From a phage: DNA of 44,789 bases. Both the position numbers and the translations under genes were made by a program. The notes below the pieces were generated by a model. That model was given only the letters and a program-made list of their open reading frames with translations, did no database searches and was not told the DNA's origin. Below are positions 957 to 42,966 of this stretch, piece by piece; within the stretch, counting starts at the first letter, position 1; every line of letters begins with the position of its first letter. The stretch lies in sequence record PZ379181.1, one strand, 5' to 3'.

Positions 957-1014
957 TAACTATCTCTCTTTCGTTTAAGTGGGGCAATCATACCTCACCT
1001 TTTGATTTTGTCTT

Positions 1015-1029
1015 TAGCAATTAGTGCTA
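1015..1029 (-). promoter_or_regulatory. TAGCA-N5-TGCTA operator/promoter module (upstream of erf)
   Basis: TAGCAattagTGCTA; contains the exonuclease stop TAG; TATGAT and AAACGAAAGAGAG leader follow on minus strand. Confidence 0.5.
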
Positions 1030-1998
1030 TTTTAGAAGTTCTTGATACTGCTTACTTACCCACTCAGGAATCATCAAATCTTGCTCTGTAATCCCATTGC
1101 TATACCCAGGCCATACATCAAGCTCCTTGCACTGTTTGTATGTTGCTAGTGCCTCACAATATTGTAAACGACCAATGCGAAGCTGTTCATCTGTAAGCGT
1201 GTAGCTCATTGGTAAGTAAGGCTCCGTTTTTTCCTGCGCCAGAAGTCGAACCACAACCTTACGCTTCTCGTTAAATGCCTTCACGAACAAGTCACGCTGA
1301 AGGCTCATTTTGCACAGGTATCCATGGTCATAAGCTGACTTGCCAAATCCTCTCGGGCTTGCGTCCGCCGTCGTCTTGTAGTCAGTAATGAAAACCACGC
1401 CATCAACAACATCCACGTGATCAAGCCTAACCTTAACACCACACCCAAGAATCTCACCAAAGATTGATAGCTCTTTCTGTGCTGTTGGTGAGTTAATAAT
1501 CGCATCGTAAGCTGGGATATTAGTAAGAACCTCGCGCATTGAGATTACCTTATCGTAATCTTTCGCAGTAACGAGCTCTTTGCCACTAATTAACGCCTCA
1601 GCGCTCTCCTGCTGCTCAATTAACCATTTAACAGGCCAATCCTCACCAGATTTATACATCATCTCCACGAGCTCGCTATATCCCTTCCCTGACGTGCCTG
1701 AAACTCCAACTTTTTTAAGCGCTGCGGATAAAGCCGTTTGGCTAGTAATCAATCCTTCCACTTCGTCAAAGTCAGTAGCTCGCATGTATGTTGAGTCAAA
1801 TACCTCGCGCTCTAGCATCATGCAGTGACTTAGTGTGCCAAATTTAAGTGCTGCGCTAGAGTTATTGCGCTGCTTAAACTTCCATTTAGCTGGTGAGGTA
1901 GCAAGAATCTCAGCCAGTGAAGAGCCAGAGATATGGTCTTGCTCTTCGTGATAGGATTCATTTGTTAGCTCGTCGTTCGTATAAACTTTAAATGTCAT
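1027..1998 (-). CDS. Recombination exonuclease (PD-(D/E)XK-like)
   Basis: 323 aa; D..D...DYK nuclease-like motif (VRLDHVDVVDGVVFITDYKT); directly upstream of erf. Confidence 0.55.
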   Translation of the reverse strand: MTFKVYTNDELTNESYHEEQDHISGSSLAEILATSPAKWKFKQRNNSSAALKFGTLSHCMMLEREVFDSTYMRATDFDEVEGLITSQTALSAALKKVGVSGTSGKGYSELVEMMYKSGEDWPVKWLIEQQESAEALISGKELVTAKDYDKVISMREVLTNIPAYDAIINSPTAQKELSIFGEILGCGVKVRLDHVDVVDGVVFITDYKTTADASPRGFGKSAYDHGYLCKMSLQRDLFVKAFNEKRKVVVRLLAQEKTEPYLPMSYTLTDEQLRIGRLQYCEALATYKQCKELDVWPGYSNGITEQDLMIPEWVSKQYQELLK

Positions 1999-2590: not shown

Positions 2591-2666
2591 ATTGGCGTAA
2601 CATTGCGTATATCATTTTTCGCGGATGAGATTGCATACATCGAGTTACATCGGTTACGCGTAAACA

Positions 2667-2681
2667 TAGCACTAATTGCTA
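2667..2681 (+). promoter_or_regulatory. TAGCA-N5-TGCTA operator/promoter module (upstream of methyltransferase gene)
   Basis: TAGCActaatTGCTA followed by TATAGT-like -10 and ACAAACAACGAGAGAG leader. Confidence 0.5.
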
Positions 2682-2740
2682 AAACTGATCCGCAAAACCG
2701 GGTATAGTTAGCAACACAAACAACGAGAGAGAATTTTAAA

Positions 2741-3430
2741 ATGGTTATCTGGTCTTTATTTGATGGTTCTGGTCTGGCGGTAAAGGATTGGGCTGAAGCT
2801 GGCCACACTTGCTACTGTTTCAACTTTGATGAGTCTGACCACGGCAGCTACAGTGACTTAAATGCAAAGGTTGAGCATGAGAACATCACATACGTTAACG
2901 CATGGATAGATGCTGACTTCGATTTTGATGTGAAACCTGATTTTATAATGGCGTTCCCTCCATGCACTGACTTAGCCGTGAGCGGATCAAGACACTTTGA
3001 ACGCAAGTGTATAGCTAACCCTAACTTCCAAATTGAAGCTGCGGAGACGTGCAAGATTGCTTTTAATCTTGCTGAAAAATACGGAGTACCATACATGATC
3101 GAGAACCCAATCAGCGTACTGTCATCACTTTGGCGAAAACCTGATAACACCTTCCACCCATATGAATACGGAGGCTATTTGCCGGAAGATGATTTACACC
3201 CGTTTTTTAGCGACCTAATAAAGCCAAAAGACGCATATCCCAAGAAGACATGCATTTGGTATGGCAATGGGTTTAAATGGCCAGAGGCAATTCCAGTGGA
3301 CGTTAACGGTGGATTCTCTGACCAATACAAGAAGCTAGGCGGGAAGAGCAATAAGACAAAGGTAATTCGCAGCCTAACTCCTCGCGGTTTTGCAAAAGCC
3401 GTCTTCATTGCAAATAGCACCAATTGCTAA
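2741..3430 (+). CDS. DNA methyltransferase (SAM-dependent; class uncertain)
   Basis: 229 aa; FDGSG (FxGxG SAM motif), then FPPC and ENP in the order seen in C5-MTase motifs I/IV/VI; could equally be a T1 Dam-like enzyme. Confidence 0.5.
   Translation: MVIWSLFDGSGLAVKDWAEAGHTCYCFNFDESDHGSYSDLNAKVEHENITYVNAWIDADFDFDVKPDFIMAFPPCTDLAVSGSRHFERKCIANPNFQIEAAETCKIAFNLAEKYGVPYMIENPISVLSSLWRKPDNTFHPYEYGGYLPEDDLHPFFSDLIKPKDAYPKKTCIWYGNGFKWPEAIPVDVNGGFSDQYKKLGGKSNKTKVIRSLTPRGFAKAVFIANSTNC
3415..3429 (+). promoter_or_regulatory. TAGCA-N5-TGCTA operator/promoter module (upstream of lipoprotein gene)
   Basis: TAGCAccaatTGCTA; its TAA is the stop codon of the methyltransferase ORF. Confidence 0.5.
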
Positions 3431-3498
3431 AGACAAATCTCAAGGATGAGATATCATTACTCCATTGAAACGAAACACACCTTCTAAGGAATACGAAA

Positions 3499-3744
3499 AT
3501 GACTAACTTAATCAAACTTTCAATCATCGCAGCAGCAGCAATCATGATGGTGGGTTGTTCTTCTGCTCCGCGTCCTGACGGATGGTGTGCAACGCAAGCA
3601 AACGGCGTGTGCGTGGCTAAATGGGAAAATGGTGTGGTTGTACCGTCTGGTGAAGTTGATGTGCGATACGCTGGTATTGAGAGCAAGGCTGGCGGCGGTT
3701 ACGGTGGCTCTGTTGCTGACCATGGGTCTAAGGAGTGGAAATAA
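3499..3744 (+). CDS. Small lipoprotein, putative superinfection-exclusion (Cor/Llp-like)
   Basis: 81 aa; hydrophobic signal peptide with lipobox-like MVGC; immediately upstream of putative receptor-binding protein gene. Confidence 0.5.
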
Positions 3745-4706
3745 TGCCTCAAGGAATATTGATTGACCTTAATGATGGAAGGCCACCTATGGAAATAACG
3801 GCAGGATTAAGAGCGCCCGCTGTGACTGGCTCAATAAATACCAATGGACTTTCGACGCCAGCATCATCATGGGATTTTGGTTTAACCATGTCCCCAGGCT
3901 CAACAGCATTCTGCCTTCCAACAAAGGCTGTGCACGTTGACGCTTATGATGTTGTACCTGAAGTTTATTATATGAACGGGTTCCAGAAGGTAAATGACGG
4001 AACTGGCAGGATAACGCTTAGTGACTTCAATGGCGCAAGAGGTCGTATAATTGACTTTGCTGGAAATTGCTTTGAAATACTCCCAGCCTCGTCTTCATCA
4101 AGCCCAGGAATACTGGTTGAGAACTCAACTGACTTTTTGGCAATTTCAAGCAATTCGCGGTTAATGTCTGCGGCATGGGTTGGTGGAATACAGGTTAACG
4201 GCGCCGCCTCACTACCAGTCAGTGGGATTCCATTTGGTAAATGGGATAACCCAAACGTTTCTCTGGAGAGCGACGGTAATACAATTTGGTGCCGCAACAT
4301 AAACTACAGCGGCATAGATGACGTTGCAGCAAGTACTTACGTACAGTTAGTGATATTCAGGAATGACCCTCCAGTAGCTGGCCCAGGACTCACAATGTCT
4401 AATAGTTCTGGACAGATTGTTTTTTCAAGCGTCAGGCGACCGTTCGTGCTTGGTGGCTTTATACAAATAACCAATGGTTTCCAGTCAATAAATGGAGGGT
4501 TCTTCCCACTGCTCAGGTGCGGCGCTACAACAAGAGTTACTGGAGGGTATAACAACTTAAGGTACAAGGGAATATGCATGTCTGGTGGTGCCGTAAGGGC
4601 AGTTCCAGGCACTGTGATAGGGAACTACTCAACGCAGACGGGGGCCCAATTCCCATTCGACACAAACATATCAATGGCTCTACCATTCATACCAAACTTC
4701 TACTAA
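3744..4706 (+). CDS. Putative receptor-binding protein
   Basis: ATG at 3744 overlaps lipoprotein stop (TAATG) with AAGGAG RBS; 320 aa; convergent with and adjacent to the J-like gene, the usual position of the dedicated RBP in T1/T5-type siphoviruses. Confidence 0.4.
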   Translation: MPQGILIDLNDGRPPMEITAGLRAPAVTGSINTNGLSTPASSWDFGLTMSPGSTAFCLPTKAVHVDAYDVVPEVYYMNGFQKVNDGTGRITLSDFNGARGRIIDFAGNCFEILPASSSSSPGILVENSTDFLAISSNSRLMSAAWVGGIQVNGAASLPVSGIPFGKWDNPNVSLESDGNTIWCRNINYSGIDDVAASTYVQLVIFRNDPPVAGPGLTMSNSSGQIVFSSVRRPFVLGGFIQITNGFQSINGGFFPLLRCGATTRVTGGYNNLRYKGICMSGGAVRAVPGTVIGNYSTQTGAQFPFDTNISMALPFIPNFY

Positions 4707-4711
4707 AGAAA

Positions 4712-4729
4712 AGGCCCCGAAAGGGGCCT
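4712..4729. terminator. Bidirectional hairpin terminator between convergent RBP and J genes
   Basis: AGGCCCCGAAAGGGGCCT perfect hairpin with flanking A/T runs. Confidence 0.6.
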
Positions 4730-4735
4730 AATCAT

Positions 4736-7700
4736 TTACCACACTCCAACTACAACCCTTCCACCATTCGGTAAATTAACTGTAATTCCATTATTGTTAA
4801 TCTGAACAGTGTTGTTGGTTCCGTTAAACGCAAAGTTGCCGTTACTTGCGTACAGACTACCCCTTACAGTTGCATTGTTAAGTTCCGCACTGCCTGACTT
4901 ATCAATGGCCCAACCCTGAGAACCAGCCACGTAGTTATTAGATTGAATCCGGTTACCAATCTTCGCGTTAGTGATTGAACCATCCTGAATCACTGCGCTT
5001 TGAATGAATACCTGATTACCTTCAACTACGAAAGGCAATGACCACTGACCGGATCCAGAGCTAATGCCGTTACTGATTGCTAACCTGTTAGCATCAAAGA
5101 TGACCTGACTACGAACATTGCCATCAGAACCAGTTAGCTCCATACTCATGCCAGAACTGTACTCAACGCCATTGTATTTGAGGCCAAGTTTAATCCCGTA
5201 CTGAGCACCAATTGAATCGGCAGTAACGTAAGTGTCCAACTTCTCATTTAACGCAGCCTCATTATCACCTAGCCTTGCAGATAAAGCAGTGTCCGCAGTG
5301 GTCCTTGCTTGCGTCTCTTCCGCTAGCGCCGTATCAATCCTTGTCAATGAAGCTACAATCTCATCATCAATCTGCGCCTTAAGCTGCGTCAGAGCCTCTA
5401 CGCGAGCCCTTTCTTCATCGGCGATAAGATTCACAGCCTGAACAAATTCGGCCTTCCTCTTGCCGTTTTCCTTCGTCATTCTACGCACGTCACCATCATT
5501 AGCCAGGGCGTTCTCAATTATTGATTCCGCTTGCGCCTGAATAGCTCCGTTTGACTCAATGGCATTCTGTTGGAGATACTTGAACCCATCTGAGTTTTCT
5601 ATATCAACCTTAATATCACCAATGATTGACGACACATCATCGCTTGCCATACCCCTTACAAAATCAGTCCATGGTGAGACGTTACCAATCTTGTCAATCA
5701 GTCGCGCCCTGTACCAGATGACCTTTCCAGCAGGAAGTGTAGTATGCCAGTACTCGTAACTCGGGTAAGGCACCAGAGTCAGAAGGCTAGCATTCTCTGG
5801 TGTATAAGTACCATCACCATTGTCGGCTACTTGCTGCAATTCAGTGTATGACGTATCGGCTGAGTTTTCAGGAAATCCCCACTTAACCCTAATGCCGAAT
5901 ATTTCATCATCTGAAGCGGTGATTACTGTAGGTGAAGAAGGGGTCCCAATCTTGCCTGTGAGGCTTACTGAAACAATGTCAGACCATGCGGATACGTTTT
6001 CAGTATCAGAAACGGCCCTTACGCGAACCTGGTAAATTCCGGCATAGATACCTTCAATATCAACCTCTGTGCTTGCTGTGCGCGGCACGTTAATCCAGTT
6101 TCCGTTCTCCTTGCGCCACTGTACCGTGTAGGTTTTCGCGTACTGAACCTTGTCCCACGTGATTACCATTGTCTCAACTGATAAACCCTGAACAACCTTA
6201 CTGTAACTGCTAACCTGAACATTCTCGGGTGCCAGTAATGTATCTGGCTCCACGATTGAAGTTGGCCTGTCCTGAATGTTTACGCCGTAATCAATCTCGT
6301 CGTATTTGTTCGGGTCGTACTCAACTGCGGTAATCGTGTAACCAAACGCATCATCTCCATCGCTGTCTGCTTTTTGAATACCGGTCACAACATATTGCTG
6401 AAGAGCAAGATTTTCCTTATCAATCGCAAATACTGTGTCAGGCTGAGGAGTAAAGCTAAACGCTGTATTAAGTTGCAGCGTCATACCATCTTCAGATACA
6501 GATGCAATGGTCCTGTACTCCGGCATTCCATCAGGCTTGTTTATTAGAATCCTGTCGCCAGCAGTAGCATCAATCTTAAATGGCACAAAAACTTGCAACC
6601 CACTTACTGACTCGATACGACCAGAAAGGTTAAGGGTGTAGTTGCTAGACCATGCCTGGTCATTAACTGCAATAACCTCACCAATCATTGGAATCATACC
6701 TTCCAGACCAGTAGTGAAACTAATAGTCTCGCTGCGAATGTTCGTCTTTAATAACCAGCGCCCGCGGCGGTTTGCCTCACTCCTGCGAGTACATCCAATA
6801 GCTGTAAGGTCGACCGGGTTGTAACCAAAACGCCTTGTTGCCTCTAACTCGAATACTGGCTCAACATCCTGTTGGTATGAGTTTTCAACGTCATCAAACT
6901 GAACGTTGGCAACCGTGTAAAGTGACTTATCGCTACCAAATGTACGGTTGAACAATCCATCAACAACGTTGTCATTGGTGAATACGTACGATGGTTGACG
7001 CGGCTTATCGACAACAATCCCTATCTGCTCGCCGTCATAGAATGTCAGCCCACGGAAGATAGAGCAAATATCACGGATTACCTGATATGCTTCAACTTTC
7101 TGCTGAATGACAACATCACACAGGTAGCGCGGCTCAACTCCACCCTTACCATCTGGAACCATCTGGTCACAGAATTGCGCCGCCTCATACAGACCCCACT
7201 TATCAATAGTAATGCCAAGCTCTCGCTGGTCAAGTCCGTAACGCTGATTCGTCACCAAGTCGTAAAGAACCCACGCCGGGTTATTGGAATACGCCATCTT
7301 AAAGGTGCCGTTCCAGGTTCCGCTGTAAGTCCTTGTCTCTGGGTTGTAGTTAGTTGGAACGCGAATCAACTTCCACTTCTTCTTGATTGAAATCGTCGGG
7401 ATTCCGTTAGGGAAGAGGTCAGAACTGAACTCAACGTAAACCAGCGCTGTAAGTGGGTAGCGGAATTTCGCATCAATTACTTCCTGATAGGTCGTAATTT
7501 GCATATTGTTAACCAGCGTCGAACTTTCTGAATCTGCCGTGATCTTACGAACCCTCACCAACGCACTCGAGAACTCAGCAGGAAGGTTAACCCTGATACT
7601 TCTGTCGTACCCGCTAGTTGTCTTGCCATTAGCTACTCCGCGCGTGTACTCAGTGTATGTAGCGCCATCAACGGACAGGTCAATCGCATACTCGCAAGTG

Positions 7701-8161
7701 GTACCGTTAAGATCTCCGTTACTTTCCTGATTAATCAGACGAGGCCAAAACAGCTTAACCCTAATCGCTGATAGCTGGGTGTTATTAACAGCAATGATGT
7801 AAGGAGTTGAGTTTTTAATCTCCCTGTTCACTTGCACTTCCGAGTTAGCACCCTCTAGCCCGGCAATGTAATCCTGACTCTGTGTGCCAGGGCGAAACTC
7901 TGCCGTTACACCCTCGTAGTTGTATGTGCCATTCTGGTTCTGTACAGGAACGTCAGCAAGGTAAAGGTCCTTTAGGGAGAATGAGCTATCAACCTCACCA
8001 TCAGAAACAGCTAGCAAAACCTTAACCTTGTTTACGGATATCAGGTTATCAGGCTGCTCTACAGGTTGGTGCTGCTTTGGCTGTCCGCCCTTACTTCCAT
8101 AAATCTTAATTTCTTCCGCCATATCACATAGCTCCGCATTTGTTTTGACCATTTGTGCCAT
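4736..8161 (-). CDS. Central tail fibre / tail tip protein (lambda J-like)
   Basis: 1141 aa; last gene of tail operator after I/K/L/M; size and position match lambda J. Confidence 0.85.
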   Translation of the reverse strand: MAQMVKTNAELCDMAEEIKIYGSKGGQPKQHQPVEQPDNLISVNKVKVLLAVSDGEVDSSFSLKDLYLADVPVQNQNGTYNYEGVTAEFRPGTQSQDYIAGLEGANSEVQVNREIKNSTPYIIAVNNTQLSAIRVKLFWPRLINQESNGDLNGTTCEYAIDLSVDGATYTEYTRGVANGKTTSGYDRSIRVNLPAEFSSALVRVRKITADSESSTLVNNMQITTYQEVIDAKFRYPLTALVYVEFSSDLFPNGIPTISIKKKWKLIRVPTNYNPETRTYSGTWNGTFKMAYSNNPAWVLYDLVTNQRYGLDQRELGITIDKWGLYEAAQFCDQMVPDGKGGVEPRYLCDVVIQQKVEAYQVIRDICSIFRGLTFYDGEQIGIVVDKPRQPSYVFTNDNVVDGLFNRTFGSDKSLYTVANVQFDDVENSYQQDVEPVFELEATRRFGYNPVDLTAIGCTRRSEANRRGRWLLKTNIRSETISFTTGLEGMIPMIGEVIAVNDQAWSSNYTLNLSGRIESVSGLQVFVPFKIDATAGDRILINKPDGMPEYRTIASVSEDGMTLQLNTAFSFTPQPDTVFAIDKENLALQQYVVTGIQKADSDGDDAFGYTITAVEYDPNKYDEIDYGVNIQDRPTSIVEPDTLLAPENVQVSSYSKVVQGLSVETMVITWDKVQYAKTYTVQWRKENGNWINVPRTASTEVDIEGIYAGIYQVRVRAVSDTENVSAWSDIVSVSLTGKIGTPSSPTVITASDDEIFGIRVKWGFPENSADTSYTELQQVADNGDGTYTPENASLLTLVPYPSYEYWHTTLPAGKVIWYRARLIDKIGNVSPWTDFVRGMASDDVSSIIGDIKVDIENSDGFKYLQQNAIESNGAIQAQAESIIENALANDGDVRRMTKENGKRKAEFVQAVNLIADEERARVEALTQLKAQIDDEIVASLTRIDTALAEETQARTTADTALSARLGDNEAALNEKLDTYVTADSIGAQYGIKLGLKYNGVEYSSGMSMELTGSDGNVRSQVIFDANRLAISNGISSGSGQWSLPFVVEGNQVFIQSAVIQDGSITNAKIGNRIQSNNYVAGSQGWAIDKSGSAELNNATVRGSLYASNGNFAFNGTNNTVQINNNGITVNLPNGGRVVVGVW

Positions 8162-41961: not shown

Positions 41962-42435
41962 ATGTGTGAAATTGACAAGCGAACTATCAACGGCAATAAC
42001 GGAACCATCCGCACGCAAGACAAGAAACAGCGCAAACGACCGTCAGGCTACTACGTATTGAAAGATGAAGTAAAGGCTGGGCTAAGAGCTCGTCTGGAGA
42101 TGGTTCTTGACTTCTACGGCACGAAGGCCAATATCGCCAAGCAGTTAAATGTATCTCACCAGACTGTAGAACAATGGTTTGATCGCGGTATGATTTCGGC
42201 TCGAGGCGCCCAGCGAGCACATAATGCGTACAAGAGAAATAAGGGAGGGTTCCGAGCTACTTTCTGCCGACCAGACCTGCAATTTGACGGTAACGGTAAG
42301 CCTCTGACGCTTAGATGCAAGAAGCGCCACATGCTACGCGTGGTTACTGAGGCTGAACTAGCAACAAAGCCACCTTGTCGACCGTGGCGCAAGAATAAGA
42401 TTGCCAACGAAGCCGCACGAAAAGCTAAAGAGTAA
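41962..42435 (+). CDS. HTH DNA-binding protein (Cro/YdaS-like), candidate regulator
   Basis: 157 aa; TKANIAKQLNVSHQTVEQWFDRG helix-turn-helix; basic C-terminus. Confidence 0.55.
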   Translation: MCEIDKRTINGNNGTIRTQDKKQRKRPSGYYVLKDEVKAGLRARLEMVLDFYGTKANIAKQLNVSHQTVEQWFDRGMISARGAQRAHNAYKRNKGGFRATFCRPDLQFDGNGKPLTLRCKKRHMLRVVTEAELATKPPCRPWRKNKIANEAARKAKE

Positions 42436-42486: not shown

Positions 42487-42966
42487 ATGAACTGGCATGA
42501 TTATTTTTACTATGTAGATGGCAAATTGCATTGGAAGATTAGCACTGCAAGACGTGTTAAGGTTGGCGATGAGTGCAACTCACTATCTACATCTGGCTAT
42601 TACAAAGTGTCTGTTAATGGCTTTAGGACTTATGTACATAGAGTTGTGTGGGAGATGTTTAATGGAGAACTTCAAAATGGCGACTACATTGATCATATAA
42701 ACCATAACAAATTAGATAACAGAATAGAAAACCTAAGAGTAACAACAAATCAAGGTAACTCAAGAAATTGCAAGCTTAGCGTTTTATCAACAACTGGTTA
42801 TTGTGGAGTGGCAAAGCTAAATCACGGAAAATTTAAGGCTCACATCAAGGTTGACGGCAAGCAGCTACACCTTGGGAACTTCGATACTCCAGAGCGGGCG
42901 TATAAAGTAAGAATTGAAGCAGAGGGAAAATACAACTTTCACGAAAATCACGGGTTAAGCAAATGA
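42487..42966 (+). CDS. HNH homing endonuclease with AP2-type domain
   Basis: YVHRVVW...IDHINHNKLDNRIENLR; GGAGAG RBS; ATGA overlap with primase start. Confidence 0.8.
   Translation: MNWHDYFYYVDGKLHWKISTARRVKVGDECNSLSTSGYYKVSVNGFRTYVHRVVWEMFNGELQNGDYIDHINHNKLDNRIENLRVTTNQGNSRNCKLSVLSTTGYCGVAKLNHGKFKAHIKVDGKQLHLGNFDTPERAYKVRIEAEGKYNFHENHGLSK

Follow-up and report, generated by a model that had tools for sequence, protein, structure and literature searches.

The lipoprotein and receptor-binding protein (RBP) genes that occupy positions 3499-4706 of the phage sequence PZ379181.1 very probably constitute a terminal module for host recognition, carried by a Braunvirinae-like (Rtp/T1-family) siphovirus with LptD as its receptor. 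Coordinates below refer to the window, i.e. the whole 44,789-nucleotide stretch of DNA that was analyzed. The first cassette gene (ORF at 3499-3744, plus strand) encodes an 81-aa lipoprotein, and the second (3744-4706, plus strand) encodes a 320-aa protein that was assigned by homology to the DUF6453 / Rtp44 / RBP-Oekolampad family. Opposed to both is the gene of a 1141-aa lambda-J-like tail-tip protein (4736-8161, minus strand), and a Dcm-like methylase gene (2741-3430, plus strand) is located directly 5' of the cassette on the same strand. A preliminary description of this DNA had reported an 81-aa lipoprotein gene and an overlapping 320-aa gene running against J, which agrees with these coordinates, and its suggestion that the two genes encode an RBP paired with an exclusion lipoprotein is supported by their homologues, for which genetic data and structures of complexes exist.

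Inspection of the gene boundaries revealed that the two cassette genes share a single base within the sequence TAATG, as the A of the ATG at 3744 is also the last base of the lipoprotein stop codon. Through this overlap, the two genes are translationally coupled. Likely ribosome-binding sites precede the lipoprotein gene (AAGGA, 3486-3490) and the 320-aa gene (AAGGAG, 3730-3735). The ORF list placed the start of the 320-aa gene at GTG 3735, which was rejected in favor of ATG 3744 because all of the homologues begin with M-P/A/G-x-G-I. Similarly, the longer lipoprotein N-terminus annotated in phage ES (97 aa) is ruled out here by an in-frame TGA at 3466-3468. At the distal end of the cassette, the stop codons of the 320-aa gene and J face each other across a gap of 29 nt, and between these convergent stops lies a G+C-rich hairpin (AGGCCCC-GAAA-GGGGCCT, 4712-4729; -16.6 kcal/mol, z = -4.7), which is terminator-like for the J transcript with a T-rich tail on the minus strand, while its plus-strand U-tract is weak.

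The order of lipoprotein, RBP, and convergent J is common to six reference phages (Rtp, OzMSK, ES, Oekolampad, Bas01, and Bas02). The layout in Rtp (Drexlerviridae, Braunvirinae) is identical, including the 1-nt overlap and the RBP gene converging upon the J homologue, except that Rtp has no methylase gene ahead of its cassette and its RBP, Rtp44, is only 41% identical to the 320-aa protein. This divergence is also apparent in the DNA, where the identity to Rtp is 85-90% in the lipoprotein gene and ~50% from roughly position 3780 onward. Phage OzMSK (vB_EcoS_OzMSK, PQ659294), whose gp038 is annotated as a putative LptD receptor-binding protein, has the same gene order and orientation as well as a methylase gene at the equivalent upstream position, although the methylase found there is unrelated, with no significant protein similarity and no DNA match. 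Oekolampad (bas18_0026 / bas18_0025; 9RPT, 9RPW, 9RQI) belongs to a different phage genus, Dhillonvirus, yet it encodes the same two families in the same order converging upon J, with its two genes separated by 2 nt instead of overlapping.

The 320-aa protein was found to match DUF6453 (PF20051) with 459.1 bits (cut-off 25; E = 8e-138) over residues 4-297 and profile positions 1-291 of 291, phrog_1265 with E = 1.7e-129, and the Oekolampad RBP structure 9RPT_C with E = 6e-67 over residues 2-320. It is 99.7% identical to its counterpart in phage ES, 93.1% to OzMSK gp038 (22 substitutions), 45.7% to the Oekolampad RBP, 41.3% to Rtp44, and, end to end, 41% and 42% to the RBPs of Bas01 and Bas02, respectively. 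The exact sequence is absent from a collection of 15 billion proteins, and NCBIfam contains no model for the 320-aa protein, the lipoprotein, or the upstream methylase. A single-sequence AlphaFold2 prediction yielded an unusable model (pLDDT 30.6, pTM 0.19); a double lectin-like beta-sandwich with a loop-bearing tip is implied for the protein only by its 46% full-length identity to 9RPT_C. Database labels point elsewhere, since phrog_1265 carries the names "membrane protein" and "moron, auxiliary metabolic gene and host takeover" and RefSeq and several GenBank records likewise use the former name. Together with the location of the gene, which is not part of the structural operon and is read from the other strand, these labels would be consistent with a non-virion protein, leaving J as the sole adhesin. 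We consider this extremely improbable, as the 320-aa protein has neither a signal peptide nor a transmembrane-grade segment (maximum Kyte-Doolittle value of 1.11), due to which the "membrane protein" annotation was rejected, and in Oekolampad the homologue, which is soluble, inserts into open LptDE from the extracellular side with an interface of ~1,700 A2 (9RPT).

The J protein itself provides a further argument against that reading. It matches Pfam FNIII-A_GpJ, Phage-tail_3, and Phage_Tail_Tip as well as PHROG 31, and it is 85% identical to the J protein of OzMSK. Alignment comparison revealed that its C-terminal tip tracks the class of the RBP rather than phage phylogeny: the last 60 residues are 59% identical to those of Oekolampad J (38% for the whole protein), whereas they are only 33% identical to those of T1 J (61% for the whole protein). 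The last ~60 residues of J (encoded at 4739-4918) belong to the type that accompanies LptD-class RBPs and presumably serve as the docking site of the 320-aa protein, a predicted virion component. A second, NupG-type receptor function of J was also considered and rejected. In Bas01, a divergent J segment with a 33-aa insertion is taken to be the NupG-specific region of bioRxiv 10.64898/2026.04.02.716166; this segment is absent here, and at the corresponding site J aligns instead with its homologues in ES, OzMSK, Rtp, and Bas02.

According to the preliminary description, the receptor could not be inferred from the sequence. This no longer applies, because the 320-aa protein belongs to the one RBP family of this locus with a specific link to LptD and is 93% identical to the OzMSK RBP, while its partner lipoprotein shares 86% identity with the LptDE binder Rtp45. 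From sequence comparison, the most likely receptor of the phage is LptD, the essential outer-membrane LPS exporter, with LptD dependence being taken from the homologues. LptD use has been established by genetics for Bas01 and Bas02 and by both genetics and cryo-EM for Bas18, and it has been predicted for Rtp. OzMSK fails to infect strains carrying lptD delta(Y658-Y678)::H or delta(L394-V396)::Y. Within the BASEL collection, the type of locus matches the receptor "without exception". Among 255 screened phages, the RBP family of the 320-aa protein was tied only to LptD (bioRxiv 10.64898/2026.04.02.716166). In the same study, the specific association with LptD applies to proteins with >30% identity and >99% coverage to members whose LptD use was assigned by experiment, and the 320-aa protein exceeds both values in comparison with Bas18, Bas01, Bas02, and OzMSK. 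The locus also has the gene arrangement of the LptD class, with 29 nt to the J stop codon and a lipoprotein gene that overlaps the RBP start. For the OzMSK subtype of RBP, the evidence comes from whole-phage genetics, and binding at the protein level has been documented only for the 46%-identical Oekolampad protein.

An RBP of this family might nevertheless have been retargeted to a receptor other than LptD through divergence of its tip loops, as has occurred in other phage adhesins. Identity is only 41-46% to the subtypes for which experiments have established LptD use (Bas01, Bas02, and Bas18), Black et al. placed the invariant residues at the base rather than at the predicted binding end and distinguished three loop groups, and six of the substitutions that separate the 320-aa protein from OzMSK gp038 are clustered at residues 179-194. 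Even so, retargeting appears very improbable given the 93% identity to the RBP of a phage that requires intact LptD loops and the exclusive link between this family and LptD across the screened phages. Moreover, an accompanying lipoprotein so similar to an LptDE binder would make no sense with another receptor.

The lipoprotein is the more conserved partner in the comparison with Rtp. Bacterial lipoproteins are recognized by a lipobox, and the residue at position +2 governs their sorting: Asp at this position is the sorting determinant, and its absence results in sorting to the outer membrane. The 81-aa protein has a signal region consisting of Lys6, a hydrophobic core (Kyte-Doolittle maximum of 2.4), and the lipobox M-V-G-C with Cys20 followed by Ser at +2; the outer-membrane pattern of signal peptide, lipobox Cys, and no Asp at +2 is accordingly present in full. 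It matches PF24052 (Phage_lipoprotein) with 136.6 bits (cut-off 27; E = 3e-40) over all positions 1-80 of the 80-position profile, and a PDB search returned Rtp45 (9RPS_D) with E = 7.7e-38. Identity is 86% to Rtp45, 85.2% to OzMSK gp039, and 36% to the Oekolampad lipoprotein. The protein has exactly the signal peptide of Rtp45 as well as its lipobox, and the Cys30 and Cys38 pair that is also found in Rtp45 is invariant in five lipoprotein sequences. The strand at residues 30-35 is likewise kept (CATQAN here vs. CATQAS in Rtp45). Relative to Rtp45, there is a 5-residue glycine-rich insertion near the C-terminus. The exact sequence is already on record in the 15-billion-protein collection as an E. 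coli "hypothetical protein".

Based upon these similarities, the 81-aa protein is predicted to be an outer-membrane lipoprotein of the Rtp45 type and a superinfection-exclusion factor acting on the periplasmic side of LptDE, its binding to LptDE and its exclusion mechanism being taken from the homologues. As described in the available passages of PMC12685063, Rtp45 sits in the LptD lumen between LptE and LptM, where the cryo-EM structure 9RPS shows that it displaces the LptD loop EL4 and blocks the phage protein; its residues 30-35 form a beta-sheet with LptD 318-323, and Cys30 and Cys38 form a disulfide. The exclusion role of Rtp45 is based upon structure and analogy, and these passages report no exclusion assay. 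It is worth considering that the lipoprotein binds LptDE primarily for some other benefit, such as protecting released progeny from adsorbing to cell debris or modulating LPS export during infection. Its coupling to a virion protein under a shared promoter would point to expression alongside structural components, and debris protection is named among the purposes of exclusion proteins both in PMC12685063 and in the T5 work. The position of Rtp45 in the LptD lumen between two other components makes an effect upon transport conceivable as well, although the available passages report no effect of Rtp45 on LptDE function. We regard a principal benefit other than exclusion as unlikely. As the molecular action, making the receptor unavailable, is identical in every version, this alternative differs in emphasis and not in mechanism.

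Upstream of the lipoprotein gene is a promoter-like module, which alignment showed to be conserved in four phages. It begins with an 18-bp box, ATAGCACCAATTGCTAAA (3414-3431, plus strand), that contains the palindrome TAGCA-N5-TGCTA and is a putative regulator site of the cassette promoter. The box is also conserved ahead of the lipoprotein genes that ES, OzMSK, and Rtp carry. It is followed by a spacer palindrome, TCTCAaggaTGAGA (3438-3451, plus strand), that precedes the -10-like hexamer TATCAT (3452-3457, plus strand; putative, from the promoter scan match AAGACA-16-TATCAT), and by a leader, ACTCCATTGAAACGA (3459-3473, plus strand), whose conservation was evident from alignment of the box modules and of the four phages. 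Both box and leader are conserved upstream of Rtp45. The preliminary description had assigned the cassette its own operator module. The conserved upstream element is real, but it is not private to the cassette, as the box is one of 15 copies in the window (vs. 0.33 expected); the same layout of spacer palindrome and TATCAT occurs at other copies, and the leader is common to most of them. Furthermore, the box overlaps the stop codon of the same-strand methylase gene (3428-3430), so the cassette is not set apart as a unit of its own. The module, 45-85 nt upstream, probably drives transcription of both cassette genes, with its promoter function and the timing of expression both being inferred. 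Searching the literature for the box sequence yielded nothing of relevance. A candidate binder of the 18-bp boxes, including that of the cassette, is the helix-turn-helix protein encoded at 41962-42435 (plus strand), an Rtp52 homologue (85% identical) whose HTH matches extend over residues 42-80 with scores below the Pfam gathering thresholds. The Rtp genome paper reportedly links Rtp52 to inverted repeats.

The cassette was initially likened to those of T5/T1-type siphoviruses, a comparison that holds only as a functional analogy, since the genes are arranged as in Rtp, OzMSK, and Dhillonvirus and not as in T1. T5 similarly combines a monomeric RBP at the tip of the central fibre (pb5, encoded by oad) with an adjacent gene for a lipoprotein acting at the periplasmic face (Llp), and the receptor is likewise made unavailable. 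However, the T5 receptor is FhuA, a TonB-dependent transporter, and its lipoprotein gene is downstream of the RBP gene; Llp is also described as being made early, unlike a lipoprotein that shares one promoter with a virion protein. The mode of action differs as well, with Llp acting by reverse allostery and Rtp45 by steric displacement of EL4, according to PMC12685063. T1 (ST32 / ST31 with Cor, ST30) resembles the present phage in that the site is between the J homologue and the exonuclease / Erf recombination genes and includes a small exclusion lipoprotein, but the two genes after J run with J, cor is on the opposite strand, and RBPs of the FhuA class form a family with no relation to those of the LptD class (bioRxiv 10.64898/2026.04.02.716166). 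Homology to pb5 and Cor/Llp had been proposed as a check. Profile searches of the PDB (E <= 10) instead yielded 9RPT and 9RPS and no chain named pb5 or Llp. For the 320-aa protein, searches of all PDB chains with the single sequence (E <= 1) and a five-sequence profile (E <= 10) returned only 9RPT_C, the FhuA-pb5 complex being deposited as 8A8C. For the lipoprotein, the PDB yielded Rtp45 and otherwise only chance-level matches, whether searched at E <= 1 or at E <= 10. The similarity to Cor consisted of a match to phrog_1119 (E = 0.0071) over residues 6-34 only, which is the signal-peptide region, and alignment with T1 Cor showed little in common beyond the lipobox. Membership in the pb5 and Llp/Cor families was rejected on the basis of these PDB and PHROG searches.

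From the homologous systems, the cassette would be expected to function as follows. The 320-aa protein would be a monomer anchored to the C-terminus of J by non-covalent contacts of its conserved N-terminal base, with its loop-bearing tip entering the extracellular mouth of the LptDE lipopolysaccharide translocon to bring about irreversible adsorption. The 81-aa protein would undergo export and lipidation at Cys20 and reach the inner leaflet of the outer membrane, where it would lodge against the rim of LptD on the periplasmic side, between LptE and LptM, and drive a hairpin up the lumen. The hairpin would displace EL4, and as a consequence the RBP could no longer bind, such that infected cells would be shielded from superinfection and progeny would not be wasted on cell debris. 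It is also conceivable, though we consider it doubtful, that RBPs of the OzMSK/Rogue1 type engage LptDE differently, through other loops or another conformational state, and that the lipoprotein provides pan-exclusion of every phage that uses LptD, irrespective of RBP subtype. The basis for this reading is the identity of only 41-46% between the RBP and the Rtp/Bas01 and Oekolampad subtypes, and the contrast in identity to Rtp of the RBP (41%) and the lipoprotein (86%).

Overall, the cassette is of a known kind, having been described before as the host-recognition cassette of Rtp-like (T1-family) coliphages; publications from 2021 to 2026 cover its family, its structure, its mechanism, and the logic of the locus, near-identical genes are present in GenBank, and nothing about it is conceptually new. 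As LptD use is predictable from the sequence, the phage would be expected to be unaffected by the fhuA/tonA "T1-resistant" genotype found in laboratory strains, while the published LptD loop-11 deletion should block it and lipoproteins of the Rtp45 type should cross-exclude it. If the lipoprotein were indeed a pan-exclusion factor, then the pair would constitute a natural experiment on the independent evolution of the outside vs. the inside of one essential receptor.

The cassette consists of two plus-strand genes whose coordinates were given correctly in the preliminary description. The lipoprotein gene (3499-3744, 81 aa) has AAGGA, a likely ribosome binding site, 8 nt 5' of its ATG and encodes a textbook lipoprotein N-terminus, with the predicted lipidation site Cys20 followed by SS; a longer start is excluded by an in-frame TGA at 3466-3468. 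The 320-aa gene, encoding the receptor-binding protein (RBP), occupies 3744-4706, with AAGGAG at 3730-3735 as its likely ribosome binding site. The GTG at 3735 listed by the ORF finder was rejected in favor of ATG 3744, because the homologues all start with M-x-x-G-I. Since the A of this ATG also completes the lipoprotein stop codon (TAATG), the two genes are translationally coupled. Convergence with the J-like tail-tip gene (4736-8161, minus strand; 1141 aa, with matches to Pfam FNIII-A_GpJ, Phage-tail_3, and Phage_Tail_Tip and to PHROG 31) was also confirmed, as the stops at 4706 and on the opposite strand face each other across 29 bases. This gap contains the hairpin AGGCCCC-GAAA-GGGGCCT (4712-4729; -16.6 kcal/mol, z = -4.7), with its T-rich tail lying toward J, which makes it better suited to terminate J transcripts than those of the cassette.

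The lipoprotein belongs to the Pfam "Phage lipoprotein family" PF24052 (136.6 bits vs. a cut-off of 27), and its single significant relative among all PDB chains is 9RPS chain D (E = 8e-38), which Dunbar et al. (PNAS 2025, PMC12685063) identify as Rtp45, the lipoprotein of phage Rtp. As described there, Rtp45 sits at the periplasmic rim of the essential LPS exporter LptD, between LptE and LptM, has a Cys30-Cys38 disulfide, and pairs a strand (residues 30-35) with LptD 318-323; its hairpin extends up the LptD lumen and displaces the extracellular loop EL4 by up to 20 A, so that RBP binding is blocked. The window lipoprotein is 86% identical to Rtp45, 85% to OzMSK gp039, 93% to its counterpart in phage ES, and 36% to the Oekolampad lipoprotein, with that of IMM-001 being the closest (96%). 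Cys20, Cys30, and Cys38 are all kept, and residues 30-35 read CATQAN here vs. CATQAS in Rtp45. The proposal that this is an exclusion lipoprotein is thus borne out by homology, namely by PF24052 and the identity to Rtp45, and a corresponding exclusion phenotype would be expected of the window phage.

Its 320-aa partner is a DUF6453 protein (459 bits vs. a Pfam cut-off of 25). The single significant relative among all PDB chains, matched over the full length, is 9RPT chain C (E = 6e-67), the RBP of phage Oekolampad (Bas18) according to the same paper (PMC12685063). The database label "membrane protein" for this family was discarded, as the top 19-residue hydrophobicity window is only 1.11 and the homologue is soluble. 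Identity is 99.7% to the RBP of phage ES, 93.1% to OzMSK gp038, 45.7% to the Oekolampad RBP, 41.3% to Rtp44, and 41% and 42% to the Bas01 and Bas02 RBPs, respectively. OzMSK is the informative neighbor for assigning the receptor. It infects K-12 and not the lptD loop mutants delta(Y658-Y678)::H or delta(L394-V396)::Y (Black et al. 2025, PMC13035648), and its GenBank record lists gp038 as a putative LptD RBP. Across small siphoviruses, the allele at the RBP locus matches the receptor "without exception", and seven LptD users have the LptD-type module in common (Maffei et al. 2021). A 2026 preprint covering 255 phages (bioRxiv 10.64898/2026.04.02.716166) places four mutually unrelated RBP families at the locus, and ties each of them to a single receptor (FhuA, BtuB, LptD, or YncD). 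By its within-family criterion (>30% identity at >99% coverage), the window RBP falls into the LptD family. Given the homology to the RBP of LptD-dependent OzMSK, the locus-receptor match, and this family assignment, the earlier statement that sequence does not allow the receptor to be inferred is outdated; LptD is strongly favored as the receptor, and binding to LptDE, its complex with LptE, would be expected. The functional reading of the cassette as receptor binding plus exclusion was correct, by homology to characterized proteins, and both the literature and GenBank already contain the whole arrangement.

The cassette had also been considered to be of T5/T1 type, which holds as a functional analogy only, but not in sequence or in gene layout. 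When the PDB was searched with single sequences (E <= 1) and five-sequence profiles (E <= 10), no chain named pb5 or Llp was returned; the RBP found 9RPT, and the lipoprotein found 9RPS plus chance-level matches. The Cor PHROG matched the lipoprotein in the signal-peptide region only (E = 0.007). The two genes after J in T1 share its strand, with cor on the opposite strand, whereas in T5, llp is downstream of the pb5 gene. The mechanisms differ as well, with T5 Llp acting on FhuA by reverse allostery and Rtp45 by steric displacement (PMC12685063). The order of lipoprotein followed by RBP, converging on J, is also present in Rtp, OzMSK, ES, Oekolampad, Bas01, and Bas02, with a one-base overlap in all except Oekolampad, in which the genes are 2 nt apart (five of the six). 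This is the standard LptD module layout in three phage lineages.

From the sequence comparisons, variation at the C-terminal tip of J follows the class of the RBP and not phylogeny or the rest of J. The last 60 residues (4739-4918, minus strand) are 59% identical to Oekolampad J vs. 38% over the whole protein, and 33% identical to T1 J vs. 61% over the whole protein. Non-covalent docking of the RBP on the end of J has been proposed (Maffei et al. 2021), and the 2026 preprint reports LptD-specific k-mers at the J C-terminus. The co-variation of the J tip is consistent with an RBP docking site at this end, and we infer both docking and virion incorporation of the window RBP. The RBP N-terminus lies in the tail-facing base of the protein (Black et al., PMC13035648), and its stretch G-I-x-I-D-x-N-D-G-R-x-x-M-x-I-T-x-G-x-R is invariant in the five RBPs compared. 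Window J lacks the divergent segment, with its 33-aa insertion, that distinguishes Bas01 J. By our own reading, this segment is the region linked by the 2026 preprint to the second receptor NupG, and there is therefore no sign of a dual receptor here.

The preliminary description placed the cassette behind its own operator module. There is indeed a conserved element in front of the lipoprotein gene, but it is one of 15 genome-wide boxes and not private to the cassette. It comprises the box ATAGCACCAATTGCTAAA (3414-3431, plus strand; palindrome TAGCA-N5-TGCTA), the palindrome TCTCAaggaTGAGA (3438-3451), a -10-like TATCAT (3452-3457), and the leader ACTCCATTGAAACGA (3459-3473), all of which are kept in ES, OzMSK, and Rtp. 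In total, 15 copies of the 18-bp palindromic box ATAGCACNAATTGCTAAA were counted in the window vs. 0.33 expected, at 1013-1030(-), 2666-2683(+), 3414-3431(+), 14697(-), 23111(-), 26852(-), 28197(-), 28879(-), 30637(+), 31785(+), 32565(+), 36014(-), 38366(+), 39436(-), and 43933(-). Boxes with a gene start in the next 100 nt or so are all oriented toward it. In 13 of the 15, a TATAAT-like hexamer comes 20-21 nt after the box; a gene start follows, usually preceded by the conserved leader aCTCCATCGAAACGA. The box modules look like a phage-wide promoter class, and for the window phage we infer both the promoter and its expression timing. Rtp52, a helix-turn-helix protein from the Rtp genome, has reportedly been proposed to bind about ten such inverted repeats. 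The box is probably the binding site of an Rtp52-like HTH protein, and the regulator candidate in the window is a homologue 85% identical to Rtp52 (41962-42435, plus strand). An HNH endonuclease gene (42487-42966, plus strand; PF13392, E = 4e-18) lies between this regulator gene and the primase gene, which are adjacent in Rtp without it, and probably represents the insertion of a homing endonuclease. Eight of the 13 modules also have a perfect palindrome (4 bp or longer) in the spacer that separates box and -10-like hexamer, including 3438-3451 and those beside boxes 23111(-), 26852(-), 28197(-), 31785(+), and 36014(-), at the same position with differing sequence (e.g., GCCGGAgaaaTCCGGC, GGCATggATGCC, CGCCAcggaTGGCG). 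Shuffled spacers yielded 1.8 +/- 1.2, and 0 of 5000 shuffles reached eight. Promoter-spacer symmetry is conserved without its sequence.

A Dcm-like C5 methylase gene (2741-3430, plus strand; 229 aa, 92-93% identical to the Bas01 and Bas02 methylases) with its own box copy at 2666-2683 is situated between a divergent intergenic region and the cassette, and thus the cassette is not alone behind that region. Rtp and ES lack window 2684-3412, an insertion that separates sequences contiguous in those phages and is flanked by two box copies, the second of which forms the last methylase codons and stop. The slot holds the same methylase in Bas01 and Bas02 and an unrelated one in OzMSK, and methylase genes appear to be exchanged at this site. 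On one side of the ~540-bp intergenic region (2197-2740) are recombination genes, on the minus strand, and on the other are the methylase gene and the cassette, on the plus strand. Within the region, GCGTATATCAT / TGCGTA motifs recur, and a stretch with (TA)n around 2510-2575 consists of A+T only. The region may have a regulatory or origin-like function.

Distant homologues of both cassette proteins also occur, at separate loci, in phiEco32-like podoviruses (Gordonclarkvirinae; ES17 NC_070984 18966-19913 and 65237-65425, phiEco32 EU330206 20499-21446, Bas91 PQ850614 63062-63250), with about 25% identity over 94% of the query for the DUF6453 RBP (E 1e-6 to 1e-8) and 42-50% for the Rtp45-type lipoprotein (E about 1e-9). 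Host recognition by these podoviruses was modeled on O-antigen and LPS core in the BASEL-2 paper, and LptD is invisible to transposon screens because it is essential (2026 preprint). It may be that LptD is engaged or blocked by these phages, too. The coliphage module likewise has homologues in records with non-enterobacterial host labels, which may be contaminants or mislabeled: PP134917 (Pseudomonas phage PsgS01F; RBP 94% identical), MG065669 and relatives (Campylobacter phages; RBP and lipoprotein about 40%), and OQ221563 (Acinetobacter phage NJ01; lipoprotein 35%).

Comparison of window 3400-4760 with Rtp DNA gave 85-90% identity through the lipoprotein gene and ~50% from roughly 3780 on. 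Against ES DNA, the RBP gene was essentially 100% identical over 3820-4700, except for one 60-nt bin at 88% (4420-4479), and the lipoprotein gene and RBP-gene flanks were 83-97% identical. The mosaic boundary is sharp and lies close to where the RBP gene begins. For 4736-29000 (24 kb compared), the phage collection held no identical deposit, the best matches being ES (91% identity over 76% of the query) and IMM-001 (87% over 81%). This pattern represents horizontal RBP-allele exchange, as reported previously for the locus (Maffei et al. 2021; 2026 preprint). Conservation is far higher in the periplasm-facing partner than in the surface-facing one.
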